Below are positions 6,240 to 25,468 of a stretch of DNA of 64,000 bases, one piece after another. Position 1 is the stretch's first letter, and every line of letters starts with the position of its first letter. The translations under genes and the position numbers were made by a program. Source of the stretch: Alphaproteobacteria bacterium (GTDB taxonomy: Bacteria; Pseudomonadota; Alphaproteobacteria; UBA2966); assembly GCA_964291395.2 (NCBI GenBank), contig OZ219858.1, positions 320,001 through 384,000 on the forward strand. The letters run 5' to 3'. The notes under the pieces were generated by a model that was not told where the DNA came from, searched no databases, and saw only the letters and a list, made by a program, of their open reading frames with translations.

Positions 6240-6345
6240 CGTTCGCCAACCCGCGGAGAATCCGCCGCCACGCCGTCGGGACTTGTCGCGGTCCCGGCTT
6301 TGCACTATTGAGGCGGCCACCACGGAGCCGAGACGACCGTCGCTC

Positions 6346-6434
6346 GGAGGGGTGCCGGAGTGGCCGAACGGGGCGGTCTCGAAAACCGTTGTACGCACTG
6401 CGTACCGTGGGTTCGAATCCCACCCCCTCCGCCA
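6346..6434 (+). tRNA. tRNA-Ser(CGA)
   Basis: GGAGGGG/CCCCTCC acceptor stem, anticodon arm GCGGT-CT-CGA-AA-ACCGT, long variable arm, GTTCGAATC T-loop, encoded CCA. Confidence 0.97.
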
Positions 6435-6489
6435 TTCTCCTATCCCGTCAATACCCATGAGTGCTCTGAAAACCGATGTGGGGCTGTCC

Positions 6490-6720
6490 GTGGCAAGGCT
6501 GAACGCCGCGAAGGTCTACGAGGCGAACCTGCCGCGGCGATGTGCTGGCCGTCCTGAAGCCGATACGGACCGTGAGGCCGGGAACGGCAGGACGCGTCCG
6601 GCAGCGCATTCGCACAATTCTCCGATGGTGCGGGGCACACGACTACTGCGCCGGCAACGCGGCGGGGGAAGCGCTGAACGGCGCCCTTCCGCCCATGCCG
6701 CGCCGGTCGGCCGGTCGGCC
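6490..6720 (+). pseudogene. P4-like tyrosine integrase remnant (internally deleted)
   Basis: GTG-ARLNAAKV start fused to central-domain fragment DVLAVLKPIRTVRPGTAGRVRQRIRTILRWCGAHDYCAGNAAGEALNGALP; no catalytic domain. Confidence 0.7.
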
Positions 6721-6725
6721 GCAAA

Positions 6726-6760
6726 GGCGAGACTAAGCGAGACTAGCCGAGACTAGGCGA
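6726..6760. repeat. 10-bp tandem repeat NNCGAGACTA x3.5
   Basis: GGCGAGACTA AGCGAGACTA GCCGAGACTA GGCGA. Confidence 0.9.
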
Positions 6761-6849
6761 ACAAAAGCACCTGCAGGGTCCGGCCGGAGCCTCGGCGGTG
6801 AAGCGGGGCGCCGCCCTCAGGACCGGGCCGTGACGCGGACGTCCGGACC

Positions 6850-7385
6850 GGAATCCTCGGGCAGTATGTCCGCCGCGATGCTTTCGGCGACGCGCCGCCG
6901 CCTCGCGCACGGAATGCCGCGCGAGGTGGGCATAACGAGCCGTGGTCCGGGCCTGGGTGTGGCCGAGGAGCTTGTCGATCATGGGGTTGTTGAAAAGTCC
7001 GGCAGCCGTGATTCTCTGTCCCCATATCTTGTGTTCGTTTCTGGGACGCTACGAGATGTTGGGACGCAAGGCTCGCGACCAGTTGGAACTGTTCGTTACC
7101 GGGTCGCTCGATCAACTGGTGCCCGAGGATCATGTTCTGGCCCGCGTGGATCGTGTGCTCGACCTTGGGTGGTTGCGCGAGGAAGTGGCGGATTGCTACT
7201 GCGGGGATAATGGCCGTCCGGGTGTCGATCCGGAGATGGCGGCCAACCCCGACGGAAAGATCGCCGTGCCTCCCGAGACTGACGCACCTGAGCCCGGCCG
7301 CCCCGGGACTGGACCACGTAGACCTTGCGGCCGCTGGCGTGGACGCGCACGCCAAAGCCGCCGCCCTCCCCGTGCAGGGCGCATG
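6850..7385 (-). pseudogene. Second tyrosine integrase remnant (Arm-binding N-terminus and catalytic C-terminus), interrupted by IS
   Basis: N-terminal GFGVRVHASGRKVYVVQSRG / CVSLGRHGDLS (7250-7385) and C-terminal MIDKLLGHTQARTTARYAHLARHSVREAAAR (H...Y catalytic motif, ~6890-6982); middle missing. Confidence 0.8.
6983..7242 (+). mobile_element. IS1182/IS5-like insertion sequence, left end and truncated transposase
   Basis: End-like GGGTTGTTGAAAAGTC; ATG 7056 MLGRKARDQLELFVTGSLDQLVPEDHVLARVDRVLDLGWLREEVADCYCGDNGRPGVDPE (DUF772-type N-terminus), then abrupt truncation. Confidence 0.75.
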
Positions 7386-7505
7386 GCTCGGGCAGACCCG
7401 GCTGGATGGCAGGGAGCCCGGTGCATAAGAACAACGCGACATCCCTTCAGGCACTGCCACTTGCATGGCAACTCGGGTAAACTTATCCCGAATGTGAGGT
7501 CGGAC

Positions 7506-9248
7506 ATGCCAAACGCTTTGCTGGTCTACCCGGAACACCCTCCCACCTACTGGGGGGCCACCTATGCGCTGGAGATGTCGGGGATCAAAGCCGCCTACCC
7601 GCCTCTTGGGTTGCTAACCATCGCCGCGATGTTTCCCCCAGGCTATGAGCTCCGCCTGGTGGACATGAACGTGAATGCTTTGCATGACGCCGATCTCGAG
7701 TGGGCGGATTTTGTGTTCACGTCCACGATGATCACTCAGCAACTGTCGCTTCGTGCCGTGATCGAGCGGTGCAACCGCGAAGGGGTTCCGGTGGTAGCCG
7801 GTGGGCCTCATGCGACCATGTTTCACGAAGACATCGTAGGCGTGGACCACTTTGTGCTGGACGAGGTCGAAGAAACTTTCGGGGAATTCCTTGAGGATCT
7901 GCAAAGCGGAACGGCCAAGAGCATTTATCGGGAACCGCGAAAGCCGGATGTGACCCGGACGCCGGTTCCGCGCTTCGACCTCATCGATATGAAGAACTAC
8001 GCCAATATGAACGTGCAGTTCTCTCGGGGATGTCCTTTCGATTGTGAATTTTGCGACATCATCAAACTCTATGGTCGCGTGCCGCGTACCAAGTCGCCGG
8101 AACAGGTCGTGGAAGAGTTGGACTCCCTTTATCGGTTGGGTTGGCGCGGCCGCGTTTTCCTGGTTGACGACAACTTCATCGGGAACAAGCGAGATGCCAT
8201 GAATCTGCTGCCGAAGGTAGCCGAGTGGCAAAGGACAAGAGGACATCCGTTCACTCTGAGCACGGAGGCAAGCGCGAATCTTGCGCGAATGGACCAATTG
8301 ATGGATGCCATGATCGAGGCCGGTTTCGATACCGTGTTTGTCGGTATCGAATCTCCGAACCCCAGAACCCTGCTCAAGACCAAGAAGCCGCAAAATACCA
8401 GCAAGCACCAAGAGAACTACCTTTTCAATGCCGTTCGAAAAATCCAGCAGCATGGGATGCAAGTCCAAGGCGGGTTCATCTTGGGTCTGGATGGTGATGA
8501 CGAGGGCGTGTTCGACGCCCAGATCGAGTTCATTCAGGCGACCGGTATTCCCGTGGCCCCCATCTACCTGTTGACCGCCTTGAAGGGCACGGACATGTAC
8601 GAGCGCATGAAGTCGGAGAACCGGCTTCTGGAGGCGCCAATCGGAACCAATGCCATGCCTCTCAACTTCAAGCCGGAAATGGAATACAGGACATTGATCG
8701 AGGGATACGTGCGAGTGATAGGCACGCTCTACGATCCGACCCTGGAGAACTACTTCAGGCGTTGTCTGGCTCTGTTTAGGCATCTCAAACCTGTCCCACA
8801 CCTTCGAAAGCCTAAGGGCAGGAACGAGATCTACGCAGCCTTCATGGGTGTTCGCCGCTGTCTCTCAGACAGGCAAGTCCCTGCCTATTCGAAGTTCATT
8901 GGCAAGGTCTCCAAGGACTATCCACGCATGCTTCCCGAAGCAATCTATTTGGCTGCCATGGGTCATCACTTCGAGAGAATCAGCCGCCAGCAGATTGCAA
9001 TCCATGAGTTCCTCGGCTTCCTGAGAGGCGAGCTGGAGATGTTCCAGGAGGCGGCTTCGGGTGCCGCTTCGGAGGCCGAGGAAATCAGGAGCCGAAGAGA
9101 GACGTCGTTTGAACGAGCCCAGCAACGCTACGAGTCCATACCCGATGAGTTTCGATACCAGGGAGATGGGCTGGGCGATGCGCTAGAGTCCTTCCGACAT
9201 TCGGTGGATACACGGACGAATGAATTCGCGTGTGCTGAGATGGCATGA
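7506..9248 (+). CDS. B12-binding-domain radical SAM protein (class B methyltransferase-like, DUF4070-type C-terminus; SwfC-like candidate)
   Basis: GAGGT RBS and ATG 7506 (MPNALLVYPEHPPTYWG); YPPLGLLTIAA, VVAGGPHAT cobalamin domain; SRGCPFDCEFC CxxxCxxC; VDDNFIGN. Confidence 0.9.
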   Translation: MPNALLVYPEHPPTYWGATYALEMSGIKAAYPPLGLLTIAAMFPPGYELRLVDMNVNALHDADLEWADFVFTSTMITQQLSLRAVIERCNREGVPVVAGGPHATMFHEDIVGVDHFVLDEVEETFGEFLEDLQSGTAKSIYREPRKPDVTRTPVPRFDLIDMKNYANMNVQFSRGCPFDCEFCDIIKLYGRVPRTKSPEQVVEELDSLYRLGWRGRVFLVDDNFIGNKRDAMNLLPKVAEWQRTRGHPFTLSTEASANLARMDQLMDAMIEAGFDTVFVGIESPNPRTLLKTKKPQNTSKHQENYLFNAVRKIQQHGMQVQGGFILGLDGDDEGVFDAQIEFIQATGIPVAPIYLLTALKGTDMYERMKSENRLLEAPIGTNAMPLNFKPEMEYRTLIEGYVRVIGTLYDPTLENYFRRCLALFRHLKPVPHLRKPKGRNEIYAAFMGVRRCLSDRQVPAYSKFIGKVSKDYPRMLPEAIYLAAMGHHFERISRQQIAIHEFLGFLRGELEMFQEAASGAASEAEEIRSRRETSFERAQQRYESIPDEFRYQGDGLGDALESFRHSVDTRTNEFACAEMA

Positions 9249-9624
9249 TGAACATCGTCGAACCCACGTGTCGGCGAAGACGGGAGCATGGAAAATGGGC
9301 GTCGGGTCGTCATGATCGGGTTCCGGAGACCCGCCCATCCTCAAGGTGAATGTCTTCAATTGCGAACCATACGCGTCCCGCCAACCAGCCAGCTTGGCTG
9401 AAAATCCGTCAATGCACCAACATCCCAACTGGACCGGTCGACGGGGGCTGCCCATCGTGCGATATTTCTGAATTATTGGAGCAATATGGATTGAGGTGTT
9501 CGAAGGCAATACTGCGCCGATCAGGGAGGTATACGAATCGTGTTTCGCAGACCGATGCTCAAGGCAGCCCATCAGCACCGGAGGCCCGACGGGCTGATTT
9601 GAAGAACTTGACCCGTAAGGAACG

Positions 9625-10740
9625 ATGACACAGGATTCGACGAACCCTACCAGACCTGCCGAAAAGGCACGATGGCGCGGCTTCACGCAGTTAGCCCTGC
9701 TTCTTCTCGCAATCGCGGTTGCGCTGTACTTCGCCAGGGCTCCGAGCAGGGTGGAACGGGGACCGGTATCCGGTGCCGCACAGGCCAAACTGGTCCCGAG
9801 CATCGTTAAACCGGTCGCGACCGACCATGTCCTGACAGTCAATCTGACAGGAACCGTCAACCTCGCAAGGAAGACGACCGTAGTTTCCGAAGTCGTCGGA
9901 CGCGTGAACTGGGTTTCGCCCGCCTTCAGCAATGGGGGGACTATCCCGGCGAACGAGACGTTCATCAAAATCGATCCGGCTGAATACAGGCTTGAAGTCG
10001 AAGCGGCCAAGATGGCGGTCAAGGAAGCCGAGGCGCACGTCCAGATCGAAAAGGACCGCGCAGGCGAGGTCGCGAGAGCACAAGCACAGTTGGGAAAGGT
10101 AAGGGCGGCTCTGGCACTGGCAGAGCTGCGGCTCGAGCGGACCGAGATTTCGCTTCCCTTCGCATGCCGGGTTATCTCTTCGGATTTGGAGGTAGGTGAT
10201 CTGGTGGGGCCGGCCGACGCGGTCGGACGGATGTCGGTATTGGGTGTTGTCTATCGTCGGGACGCGCTGCAGGTCCGCGTGCCGATCGGTGCCGAAGACT
10301 TGGCGGATTTGGCCCCGGCGGTGGGTCGTTCGGCTCGGATCCATACCGATGGCGGCACATTTAGCGCTGAGGTGATGCGCGTATCGTCGGCGTTCTCGCC
10401 CAAGACGCGCCTTGCGGCGGTATTTCTCAAGTTTACGGAAGACGATTCGTCGGACAGGCCGCTCCCCCTTCCGGGCGAGTTCGCACACGTGGAGATTTCG
10501 GGACCCGAGCGCGACAATGTGTTTGTGCTACCCAAATCGTCTGCCTGGGAGAGCGACAAGGTCTGGGTGGTCAGAAACGGCGTGTTGAATTCCGCAACAG
10601 TCAGGACCATAGCCCGGACGGACGCCGGATGGGTCGTCGAGGCGTTCGACGCGGGCGAAGGCGTGGTCGTGGGCCCGCTGTCGGGTGCCCGGGAAGGCCA
10701 GGAGGTTGATGCCCGTCAAGCTACGACATCGTCTCAATAG
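9625..10740 (+). CDS. RND efflux membrane-fusion (periplasmic adaptor) protein
   Basis: N-terminal TM, SEVVGRV lipoyl half, helical hairpin, LERTEISLPF, VGDLV. Confidence 0.88.
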   Translation: MTQDSTNPTRPAEKARWRGFTQLALLLLAIAVALYFARAPSRVERGPVSGAAQAKLVPSIVKPVATDHVLTVNLTGTVNLARKTTVVSEVVGRVNWVSPAFSNGGTIPANETFIKIDPAEYRLEVEAAKMAVKEAEAHVQIEKDRAGEVARAQAQLGKVRAALALAELRLERTEISLPFACRVISSDLEVGDLVGPADAVGRMSVLGVVYRRDALQVRVPIGAEDLADLAPAVGRSARIHTDGGTFSAEVMRVSSAFSPKTRLAAVFLKFTEDDSSDRPLPLPGEFAHVEISGPERDNVFVLPKSSAWESDKVWVVRNGVLNSATVRTIARTDAGWVVEAFDAGEGVVVGPLSGAREGQEVDARQATTSSQ

Positions 10741-10784
10741 ACCTGTCTGATCAGTAACCCATCAAACGCCGAGCGCGAGCTATC

Positions 10785-13700
10785 TTGAAAAACGGACTGA
10801 TCGCATATTTTGTCGGGAATCCTGTCGCTGCCAGGCTCTTGATGATTTTCCTGATCCTCGGGGGTGTCATTGCCGGTTTACAACTCCGGTTCCAGAACGC
10901 CCCGGATCTGGACCTGCGTACGGTCACGATCACGCTGGCGTCACCGGGTTCCTCTCCCAGGGAGGTCGAGGAAGACATCAACCGCCGCATCGAGGAAAGC
11001 GTGGTCGGGCTCGCAGGAGTGGCCCGCGTCGTGGGCATAGCATCGGAAGGTTTCGCTCGAATTGAGGTGGAGCTCGAATCTTTTGCAAACGCGGACGCCG
11101 TCCTGGCTGATATCAAGAATGCGGTGGACGGCATTGAGAATTTTCCGCCCGCGAGCGCGGAGGCGCCGAGGGTGGAGATCAAGAAACTGTCGACCGAAGT
11201 ACTGACACTCTCCGTTTCGTCGCCGACACTGTCCGAGAACAGGCTCCGTCTGACGGCCGAGGACATTCGCGACGAGTTATTGGCCCTGCCTTCTGTGTCC
11301 TTGGTTCGCTTAAGGGGCACACGCGATAGAGAAATCGCGATCGAGATGAGCGAAGAGGAGTTGCGCCGCAATAATCTGTCCCTTTCCGAAGTGGCGAGGA
11401 AGGTGCGGCGGGCGTCGGTCAACCTGACATTTGGTGAATTGCGCACGGATGCAGGTGGAGTGGTCCTTCAGGTTATCGGGAAAAAAACGACCGGCAAGGA
11501 ATTTGAAAGCATTCCCCTGACGACTCGAGTCGACGGCACAATCATAAGGCTCGGCGACGTGGCAGAAATTCGCGACGGACTTGCCGACGAGCAAATAGTA
11601 TCCGAGGTCGACGGCAAGCCAACGCTGTTCGTTCGCGTCGAAGCGACCCAAGAACAATCGATCGTAGACGTCGCCGATAACGTCACGGAATGGCTTGCCA
11701 ACTACAAGCCTCCGGCCGGCGTCGAGGTCGATATCTGGGGTGACAGGGTCAAACCGATTTTCGACAGGTTCTCGGAAATATTGAGTAATGCCCTTATTGG
11801 AATCGTCCTTGTATTCGTTTGCCTCGTTCTTGTCTTCGATCTTCGGGTCGCGACCTGGATCACAGTGGGAATCCCCTTGTCGTTTGTCGCATCGTTGATG
11901 TTCTTTGAGATCGCGGGCCTGACCCTCAATATGGGAACGCTGTTTGCGTTCTTCTTGCTGATCGGCATCGTGGTCGACGACGCAGTTGTGGTAGGAGAGA
12001 GCATTGCGGCCGAAAGAGACCAGGGCAAGACCGCTCGGGAAGCGGCGATCTCTGGAGCCAAGATTGTTGTGGGGCCGATCACCGTAGGCGTACTCACAAC
12101 CGTTCTGGCATTTGTGCCACTTCTATTCGTAACGGCAGGAAATTACCAGATCGTACAGGTATTTCCCTACGTCGCATTTTTGGTCCTCTTTATTTCGCTC
12201 GCCGAAGCGTTCTGCATTTTGCCGTCGCATCTATCGCACGAAAAGGGATGGAGTCTTTCACCGCTACGCGATGTTCAGGAACGTGTGCGCGGTCGGCTCG
12301 ACGAATTGCGGGACGCCATCGTGGTCCCGATAGTCTCCTGGTCTGTCCGGCATGTCTTCTTGACATTTGCTTTCGGGATAGTTTTCGTGCTTGCCGCGAT
12401 TTGGTTGGTACGTTCAGAAACCGTCCGGGTGATCGTCTTTGACAGCGCCGCCAATCTCGGCAACACGATTCAGGCCGATCTGGAGTTGCCGGTCGGTGCT
12501 CCTTTCGATGCGACCGTAGCCGCGGCGCAGCGTTTCGTCCGAGCGGCCCGCGGCATTAACGAACAACTTGAAGGAGAGTCGATCAAGTCGGTTAGCCTCA
12601 TTGTGGGCAACCTTGGCGGCATCGCTGCGTCTCGGACGGGTCAAGACGACTCGATTCGGAGTCATCTCGCAACGGTGAGGCTGCAGCTCCATGACCGACC
12701 GCTTCGCGAGGCGTCGCCCGAAGTCATCGAGAGGGTATGGCGTCAAAATGTCGGCAACATGTCAAACTTGGAAAACGTCTCCATCCAGACCACCCGGGTC
12801 CGGTTCCAGCCCCCGGTCGCATACGCGCTCGTTCACGACGATCTTGAGGTCCTCCAGAAGGCTGCCGAAGAGTTGAGGTCGTTCATGGGCACGGTGTCCG
12901 GTCTCTACGGGCTATCGGACAGCCTGTCGCTCGGCAAGCGGTACTTCGAAATTCAGCTGACCCCGGCGGGGCAGGCGGCCGGGCTGACGCCGGCGATGAT
13001 CGGCAAGCAGCTGCGGGCCAACCTGCACGGTCTGGAAGTCCAGCGAATCCAACGCGGCCGCGACGAAATAAGAGTTGTGGTCCGGTATCCGGCGGAACGG
13101 CGGCGAAGCCTGCAAGAACTCGCCAGAGAGCGGATTGTCGGCCGTAACGGCAAAGAAATTCCGCTGTCCACCGTGGCACGTATCACTGAAAAACGGGAAC
13201 TCGCCACACTGACGCGCATCGATGGAAAGCCTGCGGCCTTGGTCAATGCATTTGCCGATTTCAACGAGACCACTCCGATACGGGCAAGGCGCGCAATCGC
13301 GCAGGAGTTCCTTCCCGACTTGCTCGCAAAATACCCTGGCCTCTCGATTTCCCGGGACGCCGGAGCCCGCGAGGAAAGGGCTATGCTCGAAACGTTAGGA
13401 GTGCTGGTGCCGATCGTCCTAGTCATCATGTACGGGCTGATGGCGTCATTCCTGCGGAGCTATTGGAAGCCGCTCGTAGCCGTGGTCGGCGTCCCGGTCG
13501 CCTTCGCCGGGGCTGTGATCGGCCATTGGGTGCTAGGTTGGCATCTGACCGCCATATCTCTGTTCGGCATGATTGGGGTCGCCGGGGTCATCGTCAATGA
13601 CGCGTTGGTTTTGCTCGATCGCTACAACACAATCCGCCGCGAGAACAAATCGATCCCGGCTATCGCGGCTGCGGCCGGGGCCACGCGAGACCGCTTTCGC

Positions 13701-13889
13701 GCGGTATTCCTGACCTCTCTGACAACCGTGTTGGGCCTCTCGCCGTTGCTCTACGAGCGAAGCGACGAGCTTTTGTTCCTCGTGCCGTTCGTGGTCAGCA
13801 TGCTGGGTGGCCTCCTTGCCGCGGGTATCTTCACACTGTTCGTCCTGCCGGCTCTGGTGATGTTCGTCGAGGGCCGCAGGGAAGCCTAG
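10785..13889 (+). CDS. AcrB/AcrD/AcrF-family RND transporter
   Basis: 1034 aa; PGSSPREVEEDI, GIVVDDAVVVGE (TM4 DD), GVIVNDALVL, RFRAVFLTSLTT. Confidence 0.95.
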   Translation: MKNGLIAYFVGNPVAARLLMIFLILGGVIAGLQLRFQNAPDLDLRTVTITLASPGSSPREVEEDINRRIEESVVGLAGVARVVGIASEGFARIEVELESFANADAVLADIKNAVDGIENFPPASAEAPRVEIKKLSTEVLTLSVSSPTLSENRLRLTAEDIRDELLALPSVSLVRLRGTRDREIAIEMSEEELRRNNLSLSEVARKVRRASVNLTFGELRTDAGGVVLQVIGKKTTGKEFESIPLTTRVDGTIIRLGDVAEIRDGLADEQIVSEVDGKPTLFVRVEATQEQSIVDVADNVTEWLANYKPPAGVEVDIWGDRVKPIFDRFSEILSNALIGIVLVFVCLVLVFDLRVATWITVGIPLSFVASLMFFEIAGLTLNMGTLFAFFLLIGIVVDDAVVVGESIAAERDQGKTAREAAISGAKIVVGPITVGVLTTVLAFVPLLFVTAGNYQIVQVFPYVAFLVLFISLAEAFCILPSHLSHEKGWSLSPLRDVQERVRGRLDELRDAIVVPIVSWSVRHVFLTFAFGIVFVLAAIWLVRSETVRVIVFDSAANLGNTIQADLELPVGAPFDATVAAAQRFVRAARGINEQLEGESIKSVSLIVGNLGGIAASRTGQDDSIRSHLATVRLQLHDRPLREASPEVIERVWRQNVGNMSNLENVSIQTTRVRFQPPVAYALVHDDLEVLQKAAEELRSFMGTVSGLYGLSDSLSLGKRYFEIQLTPAGQAAGLTPAMIGKQLRANLHGLEVQRIQRGRDEIRVVVRYPAERRRSLQELARERIVGRNGKEIPLSTVARITEKRELATLTRIDGKPAALVNAFADFNETTPIRARRAIAQEFLPDLLAKYPGLSISRDAGAREERAMLETLGVLVPIVLVIMYGLMASFLRSYWKPLVAVVGVPVAFAGAVIGHWVLGWHLTAISLFGMIGVAGVIVNDALVLLDRYNTIRRENKSIPAIAAAAGATRDRFRAVFLTSLTTVLGLSPLLYERSDELLFLVPFVVSMLGGLLAAGIFTLFVLPALVMFVEGRREA

Positions 13890-14177
13890 GAGATCGAAGC
13901 CTCGGGAGACTGAGGGACCCTCGCTGATGCCTTCGCTTGAGTCCGGCACCAGTCGCGCTGATGTAATTGTGTCACTGCGTTACGATGATGAAGCCACGCA
14001 CCTCAGCGGCGGCGGGATCGTGTGCCAGCGCGTCGGCGTCGAAGAGCACGCTCGGGACGACCGGATCGATGGCCGCGCGCGCTCCCTTCCATGGATGAGG
14101 TTCGTGCGAACCCTTCCCTTTGCATTGACCGTCAGCACCTCGCTATGCAGGCGCCGCATCAGTGGGCGAGTTCGAAC

Positions 14178-14942
14178 ATGAACGTCAACGGGCAAACGGC
14201 GATCGTTACCGGGGGCGCATCCGGACTGGGCGAAGCGACCGCGCAAGCGCTCGCGGCCGCTGGCGCCAGGGTGGGCATCCTCGACATGAACGAGGATCTG
14301 GCACGAAGGGTTGCGGCTGAGATCGGCGGTGCCGCCGCGGTGTGCGACGTGGTCGACTCCGCGAGCCACGAGGCCGCCGTCGCAGAAGTGCGCGAGCAAT
14401 TGGGACCGGCACGCATATTGGTCGCCTGCGCGGGCATCGCTCCCAGCGCCAAGCTGATAGGACGCGACGGCAAAGCAAGTCCGCTCGGAACAGTCACCCG
14501 CGCGATCGGCGTCAACCTGATCGGCACTATCAACTCGTGCCGGCTGGCTGCCGCCGACATGGCCGCTCTGGAGCCGATGAACGACAACGAGCGCGGCTGC
14601 ATCGTAACCACGGCCTCGGTTGCCGCCTTCGAGGGGCAGAGCGGACAGCTCGACTACGCCGCGTCGAAGGGCGGCGTCGCGGCGATGACGATCCCGCTGG
14701 CGCGCGAGCTTGCCAGCGAGGGCATCCGCGTGAACTGCATCGCGCCCGGTCTGATGGACACGCCGATGATGGGCGGCTTGTCAGGGCCGGCGAAGCAATT
14801 TCTGCTCGAAACGACGGTTTATCCCAAGCGCCTCGGAGGCGCGGACGAGTACGCCGCGCTGGTCGTCCATATCGCGGAGAACACCTTCATGAACGGCTCA
14901 GTGATCCGGTTCGATGGCGCGCTCCGAATGGGACCGAAATAG
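14178..14942 (+). CDS. SDR, 3-hydroxyacyl-CoA dehydrogenase type 2 (HSD17B10-like)
   Basis: AIVTGGASGLG, VACAGI, ERGCIVTTASVAAFEGQ, YAASKGG, IRVNCIAPG. Confidence 0.9.
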   Translation: MNVNGQTAIVTGGASGLGEATAQALAAAGARVGILDMNEDLARRVAAEIGGAAAVCDVVDSASHEAAVAEVREQLGPARILVACAGIAPSAKLIGRDGKASPLGTVTRAIGVNLIGTINSCRLAAADMAALEPMNDNERGCIVTTASVAAFEGQSGQLDYAASKGGVAAMTIPLARELASEGIRVNCIAPGLMDTPMMGGLSGPAKQFLLETTVYPKRLGGADEYAALVVHIAENTFMNGSVIRFDGALRMGPK

Positions 14943-15235
14943 CGCACGCCATGGTAAGGAGGCGATTAGCTCGTCGAGCGAGCGAGAGAACCCGCGACCA
15001 TTGGGGCCCGCGATGTGCCGCTCGCTGTCAATTGCCAAGAAGTACATATGCTGCTTCCGTTATACGTCCATGGACACAACCTGCGCACTTCACGACGACC
15101 TCGTGGACTGCGAACAATGACCGCACTAGAATGGATATGGAGACCTAATTTCCTTCATGTTTTGGCAAATTTCAGGCGATTGGCCGACGATCGTCGCCGA
15201 GCGGTTGTCGCCTTGGCGATACACCGAATAACGGC

Positions 15236-18200
15236 GTGGCTCTAGCAAGTACGGACAACGATGTTGCCATCGTCGGGTACAGCCATCGCATGCCCGGTGG
15301 CATACAGTCGGATTCCGATTTCTGGACCCTGCTCAGCAGGCGGGACATCGTCCAAGAGCCGATCACCGACCGCTACGGAAAAGGCCACTTGCCCATCGGG
15401 GAGTTTTCAGGCCCGGGGCGTCTTGCCAGTCCCTATGAGGGACTGTTTCGCGACGATGAAGAACTGCTTTTCGACCGCACGTTCTTCGGCATGTCCCACA
15501 ACGAACTGAGGCAGACCGAACCGCAGGTGAGGATGCTGCTGAATTGCGCGTGGGAAGCCATCGAACACGTTGGATGGGACCTTCATTCGTTGCGCAACAG
15601 CCCCACCGGGGTCTTCATAGGTTCGCAGGTTCCGGCCGTGTCCAACTGGCGGCCGCAGCATGGCGTCACGGAGAATTCCGTCTCCGGCATCAGCCTCGCC
15701 ATGCTGGCCAACCGGGTCTCCTACCACTTCAACCTCATGGGGTCGTCCGCAACCTACTGCACGGCCTGTTCCGCCGGCCTGAGCGCCCTGCACGCGGCGA
15801 TGAACGCGCTGGCGTGCGGCGATTGCGACCAGGCTCTGGTCGGCGCCGTCACCTACCTGGGCAGCGCCAGGATGAGCAGCGGCTTCAACCTCATGGGAGT
15901 CATCAGCCCGGAGGGCAAGTGCCATTCCTTCGACGCCGAAGCCGACGGCTACATGCGCTCCGAAGGATCGTTCGTCTTTGCCATCAAACCCCTGGCGGCG
16001 GCCGAGCGGGACGGGGACCCGATCTACGCCGTGATCGAGGCGACCGCGGTCAACGCGGCAGGGACGGCCGACGGCACGCCCGGTCTCGCGCCGGGGCGTT
16101 ACATCAGCGCGCCAACTCGTCATTCCCAAGTCCAGCTGATGCGCGAGGCCTCGACGCGCGCCGGCCGCACCGCTCTCGACTTCGACTACATCGAGGCGCA
16201 CGCGACCGGAACCGCAGTCGGCGATCCCATCGAGGGCAACGCCATCGCCGAGGCCTTTGGCGGCTTCGAGCGCGAAATCCCGCTGCGGGTCTCCAGCGTG
16301 AAGAGCAACGTCGGGCACATGGAAGCCGCCGCCTTCCACTGCGCCCTGCTCAAGGTCGTTCTGATGATGCAACGGCGCACCTTCGCGCCGACATCGAACA
16401 ACTTTCAGGTGCCCAATCCGGAGATCGACTTCGAGAGCTGCCCCATGCGGGTGCAGACGGACTGCGAGTCGTTCCCCGACCGTCCCGTGGTCGTCGGGAT
16501 CAACTCGTTCGGCTTCGGCGGCGCCAACGGGCATTGCGTGGTGCGCGAGTACCGGCCGGCGCTGTCAAGGCTCTGGTCGGTGCCGCTGGCGCCGGAGGCG
16601 GGCTACATGGTCCCGCTCTCGGCGCGAACGCCCAAGGCGCTCACCGAGAGCGCGCGCCGTCTGCGCCGCCTGCTCGATGAGCAGCCGATGGACCTCTACG
16701 CGCTCGCCGGCAACCTCAGCCGCCGCCGCACCCATTTCGCCGCACGGACGGCGTTCGCGGCGCACAGCTTGCTCGATCTGACCGAGGCGCTGGATGCCTT
16801 CGTGGAAGACGGCGCTGCCATCGCCACGGCGGAGGAGGGCGAGCGGCGGCTGGTCATGGTGTTCGCCGGGCAGGGGACGCAGTGGGCCGGTTGCGGGCGC
16901 GATCTCTACGAGGCCCATCCCGTCTTCCGCCGCGCCATCGACGCCATCGACGAGCACTGGCGCGCGCATGCTGAGACCTCGTTGCGCGAGGCCTGTTTCA
17001 CGGCTCCCCAGGAGGAGCTCGACGAGGTTCAACTCGCCCAACCCGCGATCTTCATGATCCAGTGCGCGCTGGTAGAACTGTTCAAGACCTGGGGCGTCTA
17101 TCCCGACTGCGTGGTGGGACACAGCTCCGGCGAGGTGGCCGCGGCGTACGCGTGCGGCGCGCTTTCGCTCGCCGACGCGACGCGCCTGGTCTACCACCGG
17201 GCTACCCTGCAGCAGCGCGTGGCCGGCTCCGGCCGCATGCTGGCGATCGGCCTCGACAAGACGGGTGTGGAGGAACTGCTGGACGGGCTGAACATCCCCT
17301 TCCGCCTAGACGGCGACCGGCCCGTTCAGGTCGAGATCGCCTGCGAGAACGCGCCGGCAAACACCGTCATCTGCGGTCGCGAAGACGATCTGCAGCCGGC
17401 GATGGAGGAGCTGGATCGGCGCAGCCTCCAGAACCGGCTGATCCCCGGCAACATCGCCTTTCACTCCCGGGCGATGGACGCCATCAGGGACGATGCGCTG
17501 GAGGCGCTCTCGTTCCTCGACGATCTCTCCTTCGACGCCGACGTGCAGTTCATCTCGTCTGTGACGGGTGCCGAGACGGAGCGGCTGGACAGCGCCTACT
17601 GGTGGTCCAACATCCGCCAGGCAGTCCGCTTCGCCGCAGCGATGGAGACCGTCAAGCGCGACCACCGGCCCGACGTGGCGCTGGAGCTCGCGCCTCACTC
17701 GGCCCTGCAACCCATCGTCGCGCAATGCATGGAAGACGTGGCATCGCCGCCCGTCTCCATTCCAACCCTGATGCGGGACACCGATACCTGCCTTGGCTTC
17801 CATGAGGCTTTGGGCAACCTCTTCAAGGCCGGCGTGTCGTCTGGACTTCGCTGCGCAGTACCCGCGTCCGGACCCCATCGTCCATCTGCTGCCGGGGCAT
17901 CCGAGGGACGAGCAGAAGACCGTCGACAACAGGCTGGACGACGAGTTTTTCCTGAAACAAGGCGACTACGCGCATGGTCCGCTGGTCGGCCACCGGATCG
18001 CGAGCGATCATCTCCTGTTCGAAGCACGGCTCTCCGAGGCGGCCTTTCCCTGGCTCGCGGAACACCGTGTCCATCACGCGTCGATCATGCCGGCCGCCGG
18101 CTACATTGAGCTGATACTGCAGGCCCTGGGCGGCATTCCGGTCCATTTCGACGTACTCGAGTTCCTGCAGCCGTGTCCCATCCCGAGGACGCCTGTCAGG

Positions 18201-21200
18201 CTGCAAACAGCCCTTTATCCGGTTCCCAATTCCGACGGTGAGTTCACCTTCCAGATTTCGACGCTGCCCTACGAGGTCGATCCGAAGAGCGAGCTGCACT
18301 GCCGCGGGAGGGTGCGCTTGATCAGCGTGCGACCGGAGCTGGACGCACCGGAAACGCTGTCGGACTTGGAGACGTCGGCTTACGAGCCTCTTCAATATGC
18401 CGCCGACGATGAAATCTACGAGCGCTTCGAAGTGGTTCTCGGGGAAACCTTCCAGTACGGCCCCCACTTCAGGAACATTCGGAAGCTCAGGCGTGAGCGA
18501 GAGACCGGCCGCCTCCTGCTGGATGTCGGCGTCGACGAGGCGCTGTGGGCGGGTGCAAGAGAAGAGGGATACGTCTCCTTTCCGCCTCTTCTCGACGGCG
18601 GGCTGCAGTCGTTTCTCTACGACTTGATGCTTGGCGCTGATCGTTTTGCCATTCCTCTGCGGGCGGAAAACGTGACGTTCTTGGGCGCGCCGACGGTGCC
18701 GCGCCTCGTTTGCCAACTGACCTATCCCGGCGGCAAGCGGTACGAAGTCGATGACAAGGGTCAATACAACGTTCCCAACGGCGAGTGGGTTTCCGGCCGG
18801 TTGAACTTCTACGACGAGGCGACCGGCGCGCTCACCCTTCACGTCGAGAAATACATCTCCTTCATCTCGTATCCCAGGCGGGTTGACCTGCCGCACAGCA
18901 AGCACCGTATCGCCTGGCAACCGAAGTTCGTCGCCGACGGCCGCGAGATCGCGGACCGGCTGCCCGGGGGCGAGATCGAGCCGTCGGCCCTGCTTGCCGC
19001 CCTGGAACGGGGGGAGGACGGCGACGGGCGAGTCTGCCATGCGCTGGAGTTCGCGGGCTCCAGGGAGCCGGAGCAGACCGTGCTTCAGAGCTGCCTCGAC
19101 CACCTCTCACGGGAGGAGACGCAGAGCGAGTTCTGGCTCGTCGCCGACGATGAGGAGGGCGCGCGGACATGCTTCGAGGCCTTCCACGCGCAGGACGCCG
19201 CGCTGCGCTTCGACTGCCTCGATCCGGCTGCGCGGCAGCCCTCCGCGCTCGATACGGGCCTGCTGCGCTCCGGTGCGGCGGAAGTCCTGTTCCTCCACCG
19301 CGACGAGGATGCGTTCATGCCCGACGACTGGCGGTTCTGGCAGGAGGTGGCGGTCGCGGGCGGATTGGCGCTGGTTTCCCACGCGGACGGCGCGGACATA
19401 GAGCCCGGCGCGGGCTGGACCACGCTTCGTGCCGGACGGCGAGCGACTCTGCTGCAGGCGCCGCCGCAGCGGGCGGGCGAAAGGGATGAGGCGGTGCTGC
19501 CGGCTCCGCGCTGGGTGATGGGGGCGCCCGATAGCCTGGCGAGGGACTGGACATCCCTACTCGACAATCCTGCGGTCTACCCGATCCCCTTCGAGGGCCC
19601 CGCGTCAAGCGATCCCTTCGAGGTCGAGACGTGGCCGCAGGCGGCGGACGTGCAGGCGATCGACGTTTTCTGCGACTGGGATCCGGAGGATGCGACGGGC
19701 GAGAGGGCGGTCTCGCAATTCGTCGCCCTGATTCAGTCGCTGGTGCCCTACAGGATCGACCAGGCCAGCTGCCCATGCCGCGTCACCGTGGCGACCCGCA
19801 AGGCGGTGTTCGAGCCTGAGGATGCACGCGGCAGCGCGCTCTGGGGTGCGGTGCGCACCATGGCGATGGAGATCGGCGAAGAGGCCCAGCTCGACTTCCG
19901 CCTCGTGGACCTGGGAGCCGCCGACGACCTGGAGACGCTGGCGTGGATCGCGCGGCACGACCTGCGCGAGCGCGAGCTTGCGGTGCGCGAGGGTCGCCTG
20001 TGGGTGCCGCGCGTCGTAAGCAATCGCGATCAGTACCCGAGCATCCCCGCCGGAGAGGACCCTCCCTACCGGCTCTTCCTGGACAATGCGGGGCAGATCG
20101 GCGGCCTCAGGATGAAGACCTACGATCCTCCGCCGCTGGCCCCGCACGCCGTGGAGATCGACGTCGTCGCGTCCGCACTCAACTTCCGCGACGTCATGGT
20201 GACGCTCGGGCTGCTGCCGTCACTGGCCTACGAGCGCTCCGCACTCGGCCGCGAGGTCGGCATGGAAGCGAGCGGCGTAGTCCGCCGCGCCGGCACGGCC
20301 GTGGAAGGGCTCGAGCCCGGCGATGAGGTGGTCTTCGTCGACGGCGGCTGTATCGCCAATCGCACTGTGGTGGGCCAGCACCGCGTGTTCCTTAAGCCCG
20401 CGGGCCTCACCATGGAAGAGGCCGCGTCATCGCTCTCGGTCTACGTCACCGCCTACTACTCGCTGATTCACCTGGCCCGGCTGCGCAAGGGCCAGCGCGT
20501 CCTGATTCACTCGGCCATGGGCGGCATCGGACAGGCCGCCATCGCGCTCGCCAACAACGTAGGCGCCGAGATTTATGCAACCGCGGGGAGCGAGAACAAA
20601 CGCGACCAGTTGCTCGCGCTCGGCGTCCGGGCGGCCTTCGATTCCCACAGCGAGGACTGGTACGACGGGTTGATGAAGGCGACCGGCGGCCAGGGTGTCG
20701 ATGTCGTGCTGAACTCCCTCGCGGGCCGCCACGTTCCGCTCTGCTTGCAGGCGCTCAGGGCGGGCGGCTGGCATTGCGAAATCGGCAAGGTCGACATCTA
20801 CGCCGACAGCGCCCTCGGCCTCCGCGTCTTCCGCAAGAACCTGCGCTTCGCGGCCATCGACCTCGACCGCCTGATGGTGGACGACCCGCTGCTCTCCCGC
20901 GAGCTCTCCCAGGCCTGCCTCGACCTGCTCGATCGTGGTGTGGTGCCGCCGTTGCCGGTCACCGCTTTCTCCTACGGCGACTACGCGAAGGCGCTCCGCC
21001 TGATGACCTCCGGCAAGCACCAAGGAAAACTGGTGCTGAAGGCGCCGCCGGCGTCCGCCGATCCGGACTTTCCCATCGACGACCGGCGGCCGTTGCTGGA
21101 CCCCGAGGGGACCTATCTCGTGACCGGCGGCCTCGGCGGCTTCGGTCCGCGGCTCCTGCCCTACCTGGTCACAGCCGGCGCCCGCCACCTGACCCTGATG

Positions 21201-22298
21201 GACCGCGATCCCGAGCGCCGCCGCAGCGAGAACTGGCTGCGCCAATCCACGACTCTTGCGGACATAGGGCAGGGGGTCGAGATCGACATCGTTTCCGGCG
21301 ACGTGGCGGAGGAGGCCGACGTGCGCCGCTGCGTCGCCAACGTGAGGAAGCCGCTCAAGGGCGTGTTCCATCTCGCCGGCGCGCTGGACGACTGTCTGCT
21401 GGCGGACATGACGGCGGAGTCCATCGCCCGCGTGTTCGCGCCGAAGGCCCACGGCGCGCTCTATCTCCACCGTGCTACCGAAGGCCTCGCGCTCGATCAC
21501 TTCGTCATGGTGTCGTCGCTCTCGTCGGCGTTCGGCAATCCGGGGCAGATCAACTACGGCGCCGCCAACGCCTACATGGACGGCCTCGCCGCCTGCCGCC
21601 GCCGGCAAGGACTGCCGGCTTTGTCCTACAACCTGGCGGCGGTCTCCGATGCGGGCATGGCCGCGCGCAACCTCGGCCTGCTGCGATTGATGAAAGCCGC
21701 GGGCATACCCCCGGTGAGCAGCTATTGCGCCATCGCCAACCTCGACTATGCGCTCCGCACGATGGCCGATGGCGACCATCTGATCACCGCACTCTTCAAG
21801 CGCGTGCTCTGGAGCGTCGATTCCGCCGACTACATGCGGTCCGGCCGCCTGATGAGCAACCAGGATGCGTTCAAGATGGACTCCGACGAGCAACTGACGG
21901 TCGATGGCGTCATGGCGCAGATCGCCGCCAAGGTCGCCGAGCTCTGCGGCCACGACGAGGGCGGTCTGGAGGAACCCCTCTCCAGCTTCGGCCTCAACTC
22001 CATCTCCGTCGCCGAACTGGGGGCGTTCATCCAGAGCGAGTTCGGCTTCCAGGCGAGCGCGCTCGAGCTGATGACCACGGCCTCGTGCCAGTCGCTGGCG
22101 CACGCCATCGTCTTCGGCACGACGAGCGACGAGGAGGCGGAAGCCGAGACGGACGGTGAAGACATCGACGATGCGCCCCTCGCCGCGCAGCGCCTTGTTC
22201 GCCGCAAGCCCTCGGTGTTCGCCAGCCCGCCCGAAGACCACTTCCCGCCGGCGCCCTGTTCCGGAAAAGGCGCCGCGAGTGCCCTGACCGCCGAGTAG
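15236..22298 (+). CDS. Single-module highly reducing type I PKS/FAS (KS-AT-DH-psiMT-ER-KR-ACP; SwfA-like), split by a +1 frameshift at ~17840
   Basis: KS TACSAG/EAHATGT/KSNVGH; AT GHSSG, IAFHS; DH LAEHRVHHASIMP and DGGLQ; ER LIHSAMGGIGQ; KR TGGLGGFG, LDD, NYGAAN; ACP FGLNSIS. ORFs 15236-18109 and 17793-22298 join at GGC GTG TCG [T] CTG GAC TTC. Confidence 0.92.
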
Positions 22299-22360
22299 CG
22301 CGATCCGGCGACAGGGGAGCGGGCTCCGCATCGGCGCAGTGAGTATCAAGGCAAGGCAGC

Positions 22361-24856
22361 ATGGCCGACGCATGTGTCGCTGACCGGACGGTGCCGCCGC
22401 TCATCGGCCTCCTGCCGCCGCAATGCCGGAGAGACGTGGACGAGCTGCGCCGCGTCATTCACGCGACGGTCTCGCGAGAGACGCCGGCCGAAGCCGTGAC
22501 ACCAACAGACTTTCGAGAGGTTTTGCTGACCGGGGCAACCGGCTTCGTCGGACGCTTCTTCCTGCGCGAGCTTCTGTGGCAGAACGAGCAGCTGATCGTG
22601 CACTGCCTGGTCCGCGCCGAGAGCGCCGAACACGGGTTCGAGCGCTTGCGCGACGCCCTGGAGCGGGCCGAAATCTGGGAGGAGGAGTGGACGTCGCGCC
22701 TGCGCGTGGTGCCCGGCGACGTCTTCCAAGAGCATTTCGGACTGAGCGAGTCAGTGTTCGACGGGCTCTGCCAGCGGATCGACGCGGTCTATCACCTGGC
22801 TGCCAACGTGGGCCTCGTCCAGTCCTATGCCGATATACGCGACGAGAACGTGCTGGGCCTTCGCTCCGTGCTCGAGCTCTGCCTGCGGACCCGACTCAAG
22901 CATCTGTTTTACGGATCCACCATGGCTGTTTTCCCCGAGTATTTTTGTGACTTTTCGCTGGAATACAGACAGAGCCGCATCGACGATCAGATGTCCCCCG
23001 ACCTCGCCGACATGAAGAAGGCCTTTCCGCTCGGCGCCATCGGGTATCCGTGGAGCAAGCTGGTGGCCGAGCAAGGCGTGTTGTTCGCGCAGGCGGCCGG
23101 TGTGCCGGTCGCGATCTTTCGCCTGCCGCAGATGGGGCTCTCCAGCACGGGGTACACGCAGGCAAACAATTTTCCGGCCCGCCTGTTCGCTGCGGCGATG
23201 CAACTGGGAAAGGCACCGGAAGGCTTTTCCATTCAACGGAATGCCGAGCCGGTCGATACCGTCAGCGAAATCTGCACGGCAATCTCACTCAACTCCGACC
23301 GCCGCTTCACCGTCTATCACTGCTGCGATCCGAATCCGCCCTACGACGATCTCGAAGTGGCGGACTTCGGCTTCTACTGGGAAGTAGTCCCCTACCAATC
23401 CTTCAGGAGGTCGTGCCAGGCTCTCGGCGACAGCTCTCCGCTGCGCGGGCAGTGGGTCCTGGTCGACCACTTCGCGCCCTATTGGTTCGGCGAGGACAAG
23501 GCGGGACACGCGCCGCCGATCAGCGATCGCGCCATCCGGGAGGATTGCCCGCACCCGATCAAGTGGCCGGCACTGCTGATCCGCCACGCGCGCTCCTACG
23601 ACTGGGTCAGGCGTCATCGGGAGAGATGGCCCTATCCGGTCCCCCAAGGCCGTCTGGACTTCGACGGACTCATCGCTCAGGCCGAGAGATACGCCGAGCG
23701 CATGGGCGTGCCCTTCGAGCCAACCTGCCCCTCGTGGATGCGCGCCGGCCTCAAGCAACTCGTGGAGGCGCTGAAATCGCCGGAGTCCGGGCTGCGGGAA
23801 ACCCGGGTCAGCCACGTCATCTATGGGTTGACCCGTGCGCTGCGCAACAATGCAAAACTCGCCCGCGAGGCGCGGCAGCACCCAGAGATCGAGCGGGAGG
23901 AGATCGAGCGGCCGGTCTTCATCGTCGGCATCAACCGTACCGGCACGACATTTCTGCATCGTCTGTTGTCGCGCGATCCCCAGTTCTGGGCACTGCGGCG
24001 CTACGAATTGACGGAGCCGGTGCTGTCCTCTGGCAAATACGCCACCGTCGCAGGCACGGCCGAGGATCCCCGCCGGGCCTACGCGGAAGAGCTACTAGGC
24101 GCGACCAATGTCGTCGATACGCTCTCCGGGCTCCACCGCACCGATATCGACGAGCCAGAGGAGGACTTGTGGATCCTCTGGCTTACGTTCTCGACCTGGA
24201 TATTCGCGACGGCGTACCACGTACCGGCCTATGGTCGTTGGCTCGCAGAAGCCGAGCCACGCAATGCCTACGCGCATCACCGGCGCGTCATGCAGCACTT
24301 CACCTGGCAGCGGCGGCAGCGGGAGCCGCAGAGCCAGCGGCACTGGCTGCTCAAGATGCCTTTTCATCTCATGGAATTGGAAGTGCTGCTGGAGACCTAT
24401 CCGGATGCCGTCTTCATCCAGACCCATCGCGAGCCCGTCGAGTTCATGGGCTCGTGGAACAGTATAGTGGAGCGGATACGAGGCTTTTCCACAGAGCCGA
24501 GGCCGCCGCACGAGGCCGGCGCCGAGCAGCTGGCCTTCATGAGCGGCATGTTGAACGGCGCGATGCGGTTTCGAGCCTCCAATCCCACGCTCGAAGAACG
24601 CTGGGTCGACGTGCGCTACGCCGATCTGGTCGATGACCCGATGGCCGTCGTGAACGACATCTACGCACGCCTCGGCTGGCCCCTTGAACCGCTCGCCGCC
24701 CACGCCATGCAGGGGTGGCTCACGCTTCAAGAGGAGCAGCGCCGGCACGAACCCCGGCACGAGTACAGGCTGGAGGACTATGGCCTCACACCGGCGGCCG
24801 TGAACGAGGCGTTCGCGCCGTATCGTGAGTACGTTGCGACCCGCGGTATCGCGTAA
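22361..24856 (+). CDS. Thioester reductase (R domain) - sulfotransferase fusion (SwfB-like)
   Basis: N-half VLLTGATGFVG, YHLAANV, GYPWSKLVAE (YxxxK); C-half PVFIVGINRTGTTFLHRLL (5'-PSB loop), WLLKMPFH, THREP..FMGS. Confidence 0.92.
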   Translation: MADACVADRTVPPLIGLLPPQCRRDVDELRRVIHATVSRETPAEAVTPTDFREVLLTGATGFVGRFFLRELLWQNEQLIVHCLVRAESAEHGFERLRDALERAEIWEEEWTSRLRVVPGDVFQEHFGLSESVFDGLCQRIDAVYHLAANVGLVQSYADIRDENVLGLRSVLELCLRTRLKHLFYGSTMAVFPEYFCDFSLEYRQSRIDDQMSPDLADMKKAFPLGAIGYPWSKLVAEQGVLFAQAAGVPVAIFRLPQMGLSSTGYTQANNFPARLFAAAMQLGKAPEGFSIQRNAEPVDTVSEICTAISLNSDRRFTVYHCCDPNPPYDDLEVADFGFYWEVVPYQSFRRSCQALGDSSPLRGQWVLVDHFAPYWFGEDKAGHAPPISDRAIREDCPHPIKWPALLIRHARSYDWVRRHRERWPYPVPQGRLDFDGLIAQAERYAERMGVPFEPTCPSWMRAGLKQLVEALKSPESGLRETRVSHVIYGLTRALRNNAKLAREARQHPEIEREEIERPVFIVGINRTGTTFLHRLLSRDPQFWALRRYELTEPVLSSGKYATVAGTAEDPRRAYAEELLGATNVVDTLSGLHRTDIDEPEEDLWILWLTFSTWIFATAYHVPAYGRWLAEAEPRNAYAHHRRVMQHFTWQRRQREPQSQRHWLLKMPFHLMELEVLLETYPDAVFIQTHREPVEFMGSWNSIVERIRGFSTEPRPPHEAGAEQLAFMSGMLNGAMRFRASNPTLEERWVDVRYADLVDDPMAVVNDIYARLGWPLEPLAAHAMQGWLTLQEEQRRHEPRHEYRLEDYGLTPAAVNEAFAPYREYVATRGIA

Positions 24857-25048
24857 CATTGCCGACGCCACGGGTATCGTATGTCTTCTTGCGGGACTGA
24901 GCGCCCGGTTCTCCGAGGCGCCTCTCGAAATTCGGATAGGCCCGTGAGGGTCCGACTCAACGCTCCGGCCGATCAACATTAGAGGTGGGAAGCGTTCATC
25001 CCATTTCCTCCTCGTTCCATAACCCAACGATGGACCAATCCACTGAAA

Positions 25049-25445
25049 GTGAATCAGTCGAGGTACTACTTTGGGGCGGCGAGTCGGGAATTCCAGCGGC
25101 GTGTGAATCTGATGCTCGGCGAGATGCCGGTGCGCGCGGTCGTGTACTCCCATTCCCACATCGATCATTTTGGCGGCGTGCACGGCGTGATCAGCGAGGC
25201 TGACGTGACCTCCGGAGACGTGCAGGTCTTTGCGCCCAAAGGCTTCATGCAAGCGGTTGCCTCGGACAACGTGTCCGCGCGAACGGCCATTTCGCGACGA
25301 GCGACAATGCAGTACGGGCGGGCAGCCAATATGCTTGCGGATGTATTCGAACAACTCGGCTACCAATACGAAAGCGCGAGCTTGCGTAACGTGTTCCTGA
25401 CCGCGGCGCAGGAATTGCGCAATTGCAATGAGTTAAGAGAGAGCA
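25049..25445 (+). pseudogene. Alkyl sulfatase (SdsA1/YjcS-type MBL fold) remnant, internally deleted
   Basis: VRAVVYSHSHIDHFGGVHG (HxHxDH)...RRATMQYG fused directly to dimerisation-domain segment LADVFEQLGYQYESASLRNVFLTAAQELRN. Confidence 0.82.
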
Positions 25446-25468
25446 CGAATCCCACCTCTTCCGCCATT
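25446..25468 (+). repeat. attR-like copy of the tRNA-Ser 3' end
   Basis: 21/23 match to 6414-6436 including the TCCGCCA end. Confidence 0.8.

Follow-up and report, generated by a model that had tools for sequence, protein, structure and literature searches.

How did a biosynthetic cluster known from sponge symbionts come to lie between a tRNA gene and glnE in a bacterial chromosome? The window analysed here is a stretch of 64,000 nt from an alphaproteobacterial genome (assembly GCA_964291395.2, contig OZ219858.1, positions 320,001 to 384,000), in which a swf cluster occupies the interval between an intact tRNA-Ser(CGA) gene and glnE. The genome, called G000 below, is metagenome-derived; public runs from 15 studies contain the stretch, the majority of those listed bearing the label sponge metagenome. 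The name swf stands for 'sponge symbiont widespread FAS' (fatty acid synthase) and covers the genes swfA, swfB, and swfC (Della Sala et al. 2013, PMC3908369); in the accessible part of that paper an alkyl sulphate is predicted as the product. According to the accessible text of PMC9426513, swf is one of two families of polyketide synthase (PKS) or FAS present in nearly all high-microbial-abundance sponges, with a host range independent of taxonomy. The 2013 paper reports three integrase/recombinase open reading frames (ORFs) on one fosmid, and its accessible sections make no mention of the words horizontal, mobile, transposase, or tRNA. The same holds for horizontal, integrase, transposase, and mobile in the accessible sections of a 2014 follow-up. 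Full-text literature searches, which reached part of the sources, returned no description of a mobile-element context for swf.

A first-pass annotation of the window had proposed that the tRNA and a copy of its 3' end delimit a genomic island, that the cluster arrived by site-specific integration and is now immobilised, and that such islands offer a general route for the spread of swf. We conclude that positions 6437-25468 probably constitute a P4-type island integrated at tRNA-Ser, with the swf cassette as its cargo, now immobile and decaying. This is the first concrete mobility context that we have seen for a swf cluster.

The tRNA end, its displaced copy, and the integrase debris

The tRNA-Ser(CGA) gene (6346-6434, + strand, identified with ARAGORN) is the putative target of the island and the sole tRNA gene in the window. 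It is intact, and it is 99% identical in four congeners and 94% in a fifth. Its last 21 nt and 2 nt of flanking sequence form the attL-type repeat (6414-6436, + strand), and the tRNA-side sequence at this left junction ends ...CCTCCGCCA. The attR-type repeat (25446-25468, + strand) matches the tRNA 3' end at 21 of 23 positions, has no tRNA body upstream, and is followed after 123 nt by the start of glnE (25592). The first-pass annotation was thus right that the 23-mer recurs with two mismatches 19 kb downstream, near glnE. A search allowing three mismatches gave just these two copies, on the same strand and 19,032 nt apart, and none of 100 dinucleotide-preserving shuffles produced a second one. 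Among the 20 direct-repeat families listed for positions 5800-26000, this pair is the sole one with at least 90% identity (the rest range from 66% to 87%). The attR copy differs from attL by two C-to-T changes, and its variant of the tRNA end occurs once in G000. The two mismatches are most simply explained by drift. The 23-mer is identical in all five other swf-bearing alphaproteobacterial genomes checked, and an element targeting tRNA-Ser would therefore meet its site in many hosts.

Two other candidates were rejected. A donor-type tRNA carrying the attR variant was found in none of these five swf-bearing genomes, which all have the host-type end. A different second repeat, GCCATTTCGC... at 25286, is 84% identical over 19 nt, lies within the sulfatase remnant described below, and was judged to be a chance match.

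The debris of an integrase lies 0.3-1 kb from the tRNA. One stop-free frame on the - strand (6746-7048) carries the motif LLGHTQARTTARYAHL at ~6899-6985 (LLGH..TT..YAH) and is the putative C-terminal remnant, matching positions 146-169 of the 172 in PF00589 (E 0.028, 14.6 bits; E 0.16 in the whole-genome scan). The putative N-terminal remnant, also on the - strand (7099-7446), has a P4-type arm-DNA-binding domain at ~7270-7371 that matches positions 18-61 of the 83 in PF13356 (E 0.0048, 17.4 bits); both scores are under the Pfam cut-offs. Between the two pieces lies an 84-aa N-terminal fragment of a transposase of the IS1182/IS5 type of insertion sequences (IS; 7050-7301, + strand, with the similar part at ~7056-7235), which shares a reading frame with the swfC ORF. 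This fragment has no direct Pfam match of its own; its similarity is to the N-termini (41-44% identity) of frames of 460-465 aa in 3 of 20 relatives, and one of these frames consists of DUF772, DDE_Tnp_1_6, and DDE_Tnp_1. Integrase debris thus abuts the tRNA, as had been noted. The accompanying statement that 'both integrases' are dead stands for the wreckage and fails for the number: the pieces lie on one strand in the order right for a single gene, and the simplest reading of the sequence is a lone integrase gene that the IS fragment divides in two. Within G000 (whose contigs are called C1, C3, and so on), the C-terminal remnant has a 69%-identical counterpart at C3:1133738 and the N-terminal one a weak match to another remnant at C1:968396; compared with the integrases of G000 itself, the debris gives only a 30-aa C-terminal match (E 0.009). 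G000 does have an intact P4-type integrase of 411 aa elsewhere, at C1:1561244-1562479. Genes for relaxases, coupling proteins, or type IV secretion were found neither in the nine long ORFs of positions 6942-28627 nor in the antisense and short frames scanned.

Three smaller features belong to this end of the island. A 37-nt block (6476-6512, + strand) has a 34/37 copy at C1:1511210-1511246, 106 nt downstream of tRNA-Ser(TGA), and is possibly an element end or arm sequence. Integrase genes or scraps of them also occur in G000 at 15-50 kb downstream of tRNA-Ser(GCT) and tRNA-Ser(TGA). Positions 6725-6762 hold three tandem units of ~10 nt (GCGAGACTAG-like), and short arrays of that unit give 48 more BLAST matches genome-wide, some of them overlapping.

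The locus across the genus and the other sites of the cassette

We compared the locus with those of five congeners (G001-G005), of which the sister species G005 is the closest. The order proA-proB-obg-two ORFs-tRNA-Ser(CGA) is kept in all five, and the six genomes all diverge from each other right after the CCA. In G001 and G004, the tRNA has a conserved gene behind it at distances of 26 and 67 nt, respectively. In G002, the same gene comes after a 6.5-kb Type III restriction-modification insert (methylase, DUF2806, and Res helicase-endonuclease; positions 6157-12511 of the fetched stretch L011) that starts directly after the tRNA and is devoid of integrase or repeat. G003 has ~5.7 kb of other DNA followed by homologues of the window from 29080 onward, without glnE, and in G005 the tRNA is followed by a 12.6-kb insert and then by glnE. 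The G005 insert encodes a 1749-aa DEAD+UvrD helicase, a HEPN protein, and a P4-type arm-domain remnant that is above the Pfam cut-off (PF13356, 29.5 bits). The tRNA-Ser(CGA) locus is a hypervariable tRNA-linked hotspot with turnover of cargo within the genus. It resembles the tRNA hotspots that hold defence islands, given what G002 and G005 carry at the same tRNA end, and differs from them in that the G000 hotspot holds a biosynthetic cluster and keeps a recognisable att repeat, the only one among the six genomes.

The comparison with G005 also fixes the limits of the island. G005 and the window are homologous in DNA up to 6435, one base past the tRNA, and again from 25525, 57 nt past attR, so that the ends of the island fall within 0 and 57 nt of the synteny breaks; the flanking proteins are 81-88% identical. 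The repeats therefore enclose DNA that differs between the two sister species, and the genes within it are those that the first-pass annotation had described, as judged from their Pfam domains. Outside the island, on its right flank, glnE (25592-28627, + strand, Pfam) is the second paralog in G000, the other being at C1:1286936-1289803. It is 82% identical to the gene in the same place in G005, has best matches of 53% at other loci in G001, G002, and G004, and has no counterpart that we found in G003; this copy would seem to be an accessory paralog or one that has relocated.

Two further observations concern the G005 insert (fetched stretch L006). It contains a glutamate dehydrogenase-like gene, read by eye, on the - strand at ~10110-11480. 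In addition, the promoter region of glnE and its initial codons (14082-14180) have a duplicate 2 kb upstream (12098-12195), before the ORF with the HEPN domain.

Traces of an empty or excised site were sought in metagenome contigs. A scan based on glnE gave distant relatives only (best 58%), with no tRNA of any kind in the nine loci checked. The joint between the tRNA end and 25469 is absent from the 15 joints listed out of 65 in contigs of four runs (6000-25900), a sample that cannot show absence. In two of the four runs, contigs join 25087 to 25447, one base into attR, so that 359 nt of the sulfatase remnant are missing; this joint has short sides (26-36 nt) and may come from another organism.

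The swf cassette is rare among the relatives of G000. Full-length swfB occurs in 2 of 41 genomes of the same genus, family, order, or class (G000 and G005; G026 has a match limited to one domain) and in 1 of 401 genomes sampled across the phylum (G000 itself, with 12 other matches of one domain each). No match to swfB at E<=1e-20 was found in G001-G004. Composition is atypical, as seen with the tetranucleotide profile that the first-pass annotation had proposed to check: the deviation in 5-kb windows places the island at the 63rd-97th percentile versus the 14th-23rd for its flanks, and the G+C content drops to 57.1% in the island versus 63.9% for the genome.

The cassette of G005 is not at the tRNA. 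It forms a 16.6-kb insertion at C1:~753.6-770.2 kb of that genome, a separate locus (L008/L007), in the order SDR (short-chain dehydrogenase/reductase) fragment-swfA-swfB-1.6 kb-HlyD-AcrB, with a gene resembling a histidine kinase (read by eye) on one side and a convergent gene on the other. Its flanks map to C3:954755-958358 and 958460-960886 in G000, where the empty site measures ~100 bp. The cassettes of G005 and the window are 73% identical in DNA, and the flanks of the G005 cassette 82-89%. An exact 12-nt repeat, TAGAGCCGGCCG (16/18 when neighbouring positions are counted), flanks the insertion on both sides and reproduces the 3' end of the gene beside it; the empty site in G000 has one copy, with one mismatch in 12.

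A third site is found in other alphaproteobacterial metagenome-assembled genomes (MAGs; L015/L016), in which swfA and swfB alone, ~10 kb, are inserted. The genes on either side (positions 1-2900 and 12491-22490) are 50-68% identical to two adjacent genes of G000, at C3:627610-628650 and 629091-630323. The part of swfA encoding DH-ER-KR-ACP is 92% identical, and swfB 84% identical, to those of the window. The swfA of L015 has an interruption of ~1.5 kb in its KS-AT part.

We built a maximum-likelihood tree of 24 SwfB proteins, drawing on a sample of 30 other swf loci fetched with flanks of up to 10 kb (22 loci with full-length swfB were used and 8 partial ones omitted). The G005 copy forms a pair with that of a Paracoccaceae MAG (100/100), and the window copy with L014-L017 (92/93), inside a clade (97/98) that excludes G005. 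Gammaproteobacteria and Rhodothermales copies are also members of the tree. Because the G005 cassette lies elsewhere, at a site that is empty in G000, and the two swfB belong to different clades, sequence comparison clearly indicates that the window cassette was horizontally acquired, into a tRNA-linked variable locus. By the same comparison, swf cassettes appear to have entered at least three chromosomal sites. The locus, together with the two sites that are empty in G000, gives direct comparative evidence of a cassette moving between chromosomal sites and lineages, and a tRNA-Ser integrative island with a target sequence conserved across hosts is a plausible vehicle.

Explanations for the island

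In the explanation that we consider probable, a circular element would have recombined with tRNA-Ser(CGA) by means of a P4-type tyrosine integrase with an arm-binding N-domain and a catalytic C-domain. The attP site of the element would have copied the last ~21 nt of the tRNA, and recombination would have left an intact tRNA at attL and a displaced copy of its end at attR. The cargo would have comprised swfC, the mono-modular PKS/FAS gene swfA, swfB, a pair of efflux genes of the resistance-nodulation-division (RND) type, the SDR gene, and an alkyl sulfatase gene that is now truncated. An IS would later have inserted into the integrase gene, which reads toward the tRNA, and deletions would have reduced both to fragments, cutting the integrase gene from ~1.2 kb to ~0.5 kb, such that the island could no longer excise by its own enzyme; swfA would also have gained a 1-nt frameshift. 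We regard the island as decaying because the integrase is wrecked, the sulfatase truncated, and swfA frameshifted. The first-pass annotation had proposed arrival by site-specific integration. Its horizontal component is borne out by the comparisons above; the recombination event itself, the place of the cassette as cargo of that element, and their arrival with the integrase in a single event are what we infer.

Several observations weigh against this explanation. Three other tRNA-Ser genes of G000 have the same 3' end (GGA twice and, nearly, TGA), so the repeat alone does not single out tRNA-Ser(CGA). The two integrase matches do not reach the Pfam cut-offs, and no intact integrase gene is present in the island. 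Alignment is weak over the 56 nt that separate attR from where clear homology with G005 begins, and the G+C content forms a mosaic within the island (54-70%) that fits assembly from several pieces. A second tRNA-end repeat was seen in none of the fetched stretches of the five congeners, which implies that scars of the integrase type are not typical of the hotspot. Likewise, an empty tRNA-Ser-glnE junction, expected in relatives by the first-pass annotation, is present in none of the five. That annotation had regarded relatives without the tRNA beside glnE as telling against an island, and literally this is the situation in all five; we do not take it as a refutation because this glnE is a second, variable paralog and because the flanks in G005 match precisely.

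The link of swf to tRNAs and integrases is, moreover, not general in the loci examined. None of the 30 other loci has a tRNA-Ser within 10 kb of swf, and the two with any tRNA have a tRNA-Gly on the wrong side of the cassette. A rough tblastn search with the integrase frames of G000 and a transposase matched one of the 30 (L025, from a Thalassobaculaceae MAG), where a 392-aa frame directly after swfB (12579-13757) combines a SAM-like integrase domain with positions 1-78 of the 172 in the catalytic domain, and is thus a partial recombinase. PF00589 has no match within 60 kb of the G005 insertion, and for 10 swf-bearing genomes no match within 15 kb of the fetched swf locus is among those listed (57 and 115 further ones exist). 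With two other sites devoid of integrase, these counts do not sustain the proposal of a general route for the spread of swf. The genome behind L016 (G441) has at least 150 matches to PF00589, many of them identical frames of 293 or 360 aa, a sign that a repeat element bearing a recombinase has multiplied extensively; integrase proximity therefore means little there.

Some of these points would be accommodated if the hotspot were composite, the repeat and the debris being relics of an older element and the swf cassette having entered later, or replaced earlier cargo, by homologous or illegitimate recombination or by IS-mediated capture. We hold this to be possible, though on the unlikely side. 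It agrees with the position of swfA-swfB between conserved genes, without an integrase, in G005 and L015/L016; with the accessory genes (swfC, SDR, HlyD/AcrB), which are present in only some of the 30 loci and vary in their order and strand; and with the swings of G+C, the IS fragment, and the cargo turnover at this tRNA in the genus. What argues for a single element is the tight enclosure: between the debris and the cassette we found neither an internal boundary nor another repeat pair nor the end of an IS, swfC begins 60 nt past the frame of the integrase N-terminus, and attR lies ~20 nt past the sulfatase homology. Vertical inheritance of a cassette ancestral at this locus, with loss or replacement in the relatives, would suit the conservation of the proA-proB-obg-tRNA flank across the genus, but it is very unlikely given the placement of the G005 cassette elsewhere and in a different swfB clade, the atypical composition, the lack of swfB matches in G001-G004, and a swfA that is 92% identical in genomes whose flanking genes are 50-68% identical.

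The second copy could instead be the stump of a separate, decayed tRNA gene, such as a tandem tRNA-Ser, and the 3' end common to the three other tRNA-Ser genes is in line with this. We give it a similarly slight chance: identity between the two copies begins only in the T-loop, no tRNA-like structure was found upstream of the second copy by ARAGORN or by Rfam (25250-25600 searched at E<=10 without a match), all congeners lack a second tRNA in the interval, and the copy sits at the synteny breakpoint. The first-pass annotation had raised this as a challenge to its own proposal, which thus withstands it. An assembly artefact, with a foreign contig joined into a metagenome-derived genome, has in its favour an estimated contamination of 9.01% for G000 and the fact that tRNA genes are common points of mis-joining. 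We find it the least credible of these alternatives, and very unlikely, as contigs of sponge metagenomes span both attL (6406-7114, 1 difference) and attR (25139-25537, 399 nt, 4 differences). Both junctions thus exist outside the G000 assembly, with support that is limited in that the runs may include its source sample.

A broader hypothesis is that the swf cassette constitutes a mobile module in its own right, which would travel in circular form, enter chromosomes at varied short targets, and hitch-hike on whatever recombinase is available. We regard it as speculative and rather unlikely. It fits because the five shared genes are cyclically permuted (HlyD-AcrB-SDR-swfA-swfB in G000 and SDR-swfA-swfB-HlyD-AcrB in G005), because a 12-nt repeat brackets the G005 insertion, and because the tRNA-end repeat that encloses the window cassette is a target identical in all five other swf-bearing alphaproteobacteria checked. 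If true, it would explain the presence of one cluster in Alphaproteobacteria, Gammaproteobacteria, and Rhodothermales within sponges.

Known islands and the genes of the cassette

Islands linked to tRNA genes and carrying biosynthetic cargo are textbook elements. The high-pathogenicity island of Yersinia, at tRNA-Asn, and the pks (colibactin) island of Escherichia coli, at asnW, have P4-type integrases and cargo of PKS and nonribosomal peptide synthetase genes. The island resulting from our preferred explanation, integration at tRNA-Ser(CGA), resembles them in its insertion at a tRNA 3' end, tRNA-end repeat, biosynthetic cargo, and patchy distribution, and its putative arm-domain integrase would likewise have lain next to the tRNA. 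It differs in the target, tRNA-Ser(CGA), in the host, an uncultured sponge-associated alphaproteobacterium, in the cargo of swf and RND efflux genes, and in an integrase of which two fragments survive, both scoring below threshold and with an IS remnant between them. It would be an ordinary kind of element and a dead copy of it, whose value is as a documented example of mobility and as a handle for finding live relatives.

All genes of the cassette are on the + strand. The first, swfC (7506-9248; B12-binding, Radical_SAM, and DUF4070 domains by Pfam, with the ATG at 7506 by a start-codon check), is 70-82% identical to the radical SAM gene adjoining swfB in 11 other loci. It is followed by the RND efflux pair, an HlyD-family periplasmic adaptor (9625-10740, Pfam; 52% identical to the copy in the G005 cassette) and an AcrB-family RND transporter (10785-13889; Pfam E 5e-126) of a kind that adjoins swfA in six other loci. 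The SDR gene (14022-14942, Pfam) has counterparts near swfA or swfB in 10 other loci, with 65-87% identity. The accessible description of swf in PMC3908369 agrees with the domain content found here, that is KS-AT-DH-ER-KR-ACP in swfA, a reductase and a sulfotransferase in swfB, and B12/radical SAM domains in swfC. The window differs from that description in that swfC lies upstream, separated from swfA by the HlyD, AcrB, and SDR genes, and in that swfA is frameshifted.

By Pfam, swfA (15236-22298) is mono-modular with all six domains present, and it is read in two overlapping frames, KS-AT (15236-18109) and DH-ER-KR-ACP (17793-22298), because of a 1-nt insertion at ~17839 (17826-17850, not a homopolymer) relative to L014, L016, and L022. 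In G005, swfA is a single ORF of 2360 aa, and the swfA matches of other loci cross the break point in one frame. The frameshift may reflect a real pseudogene or an assembly error; no indel at 17839 is among the 12 of 37 rows listed for metagenome contigs. A like split was noted in the 'poribacterial' swfA copy, for which a sequencing error was suspected in the accessible text of PMC3908369. The next gene, swfB (22361-24856), encodes an 831-aa fusion of thioester reductase and sulfotransferase (NAD_binding_4 and Sulfotransfer_3 in Pfam) that is 63-84% identical to the full-length SwfB matches among the 30 loci, and it directly follows swfA in every locus with both genes.

The last gene is a remnant of an alkyl sulfatase, a 154-aa frame (25049-25513) with partial Pfam matches to a piece of the metallo-beta-lactamase domain and a piece of the dimerisation domain. 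Its homology stops at ~25424, and its open frame continues across attR. Neither G005 nor any of the 30 other loci was found to have a sulfatase beside swf. In the window, the truncated alkyl sulfatase closes a predicted alkyl-sulphate cluster that adjoins an RND efflux pair, and the sulfatase, the cluster, and the efflux genes may once have formed a set to make, export, and degrade the product.

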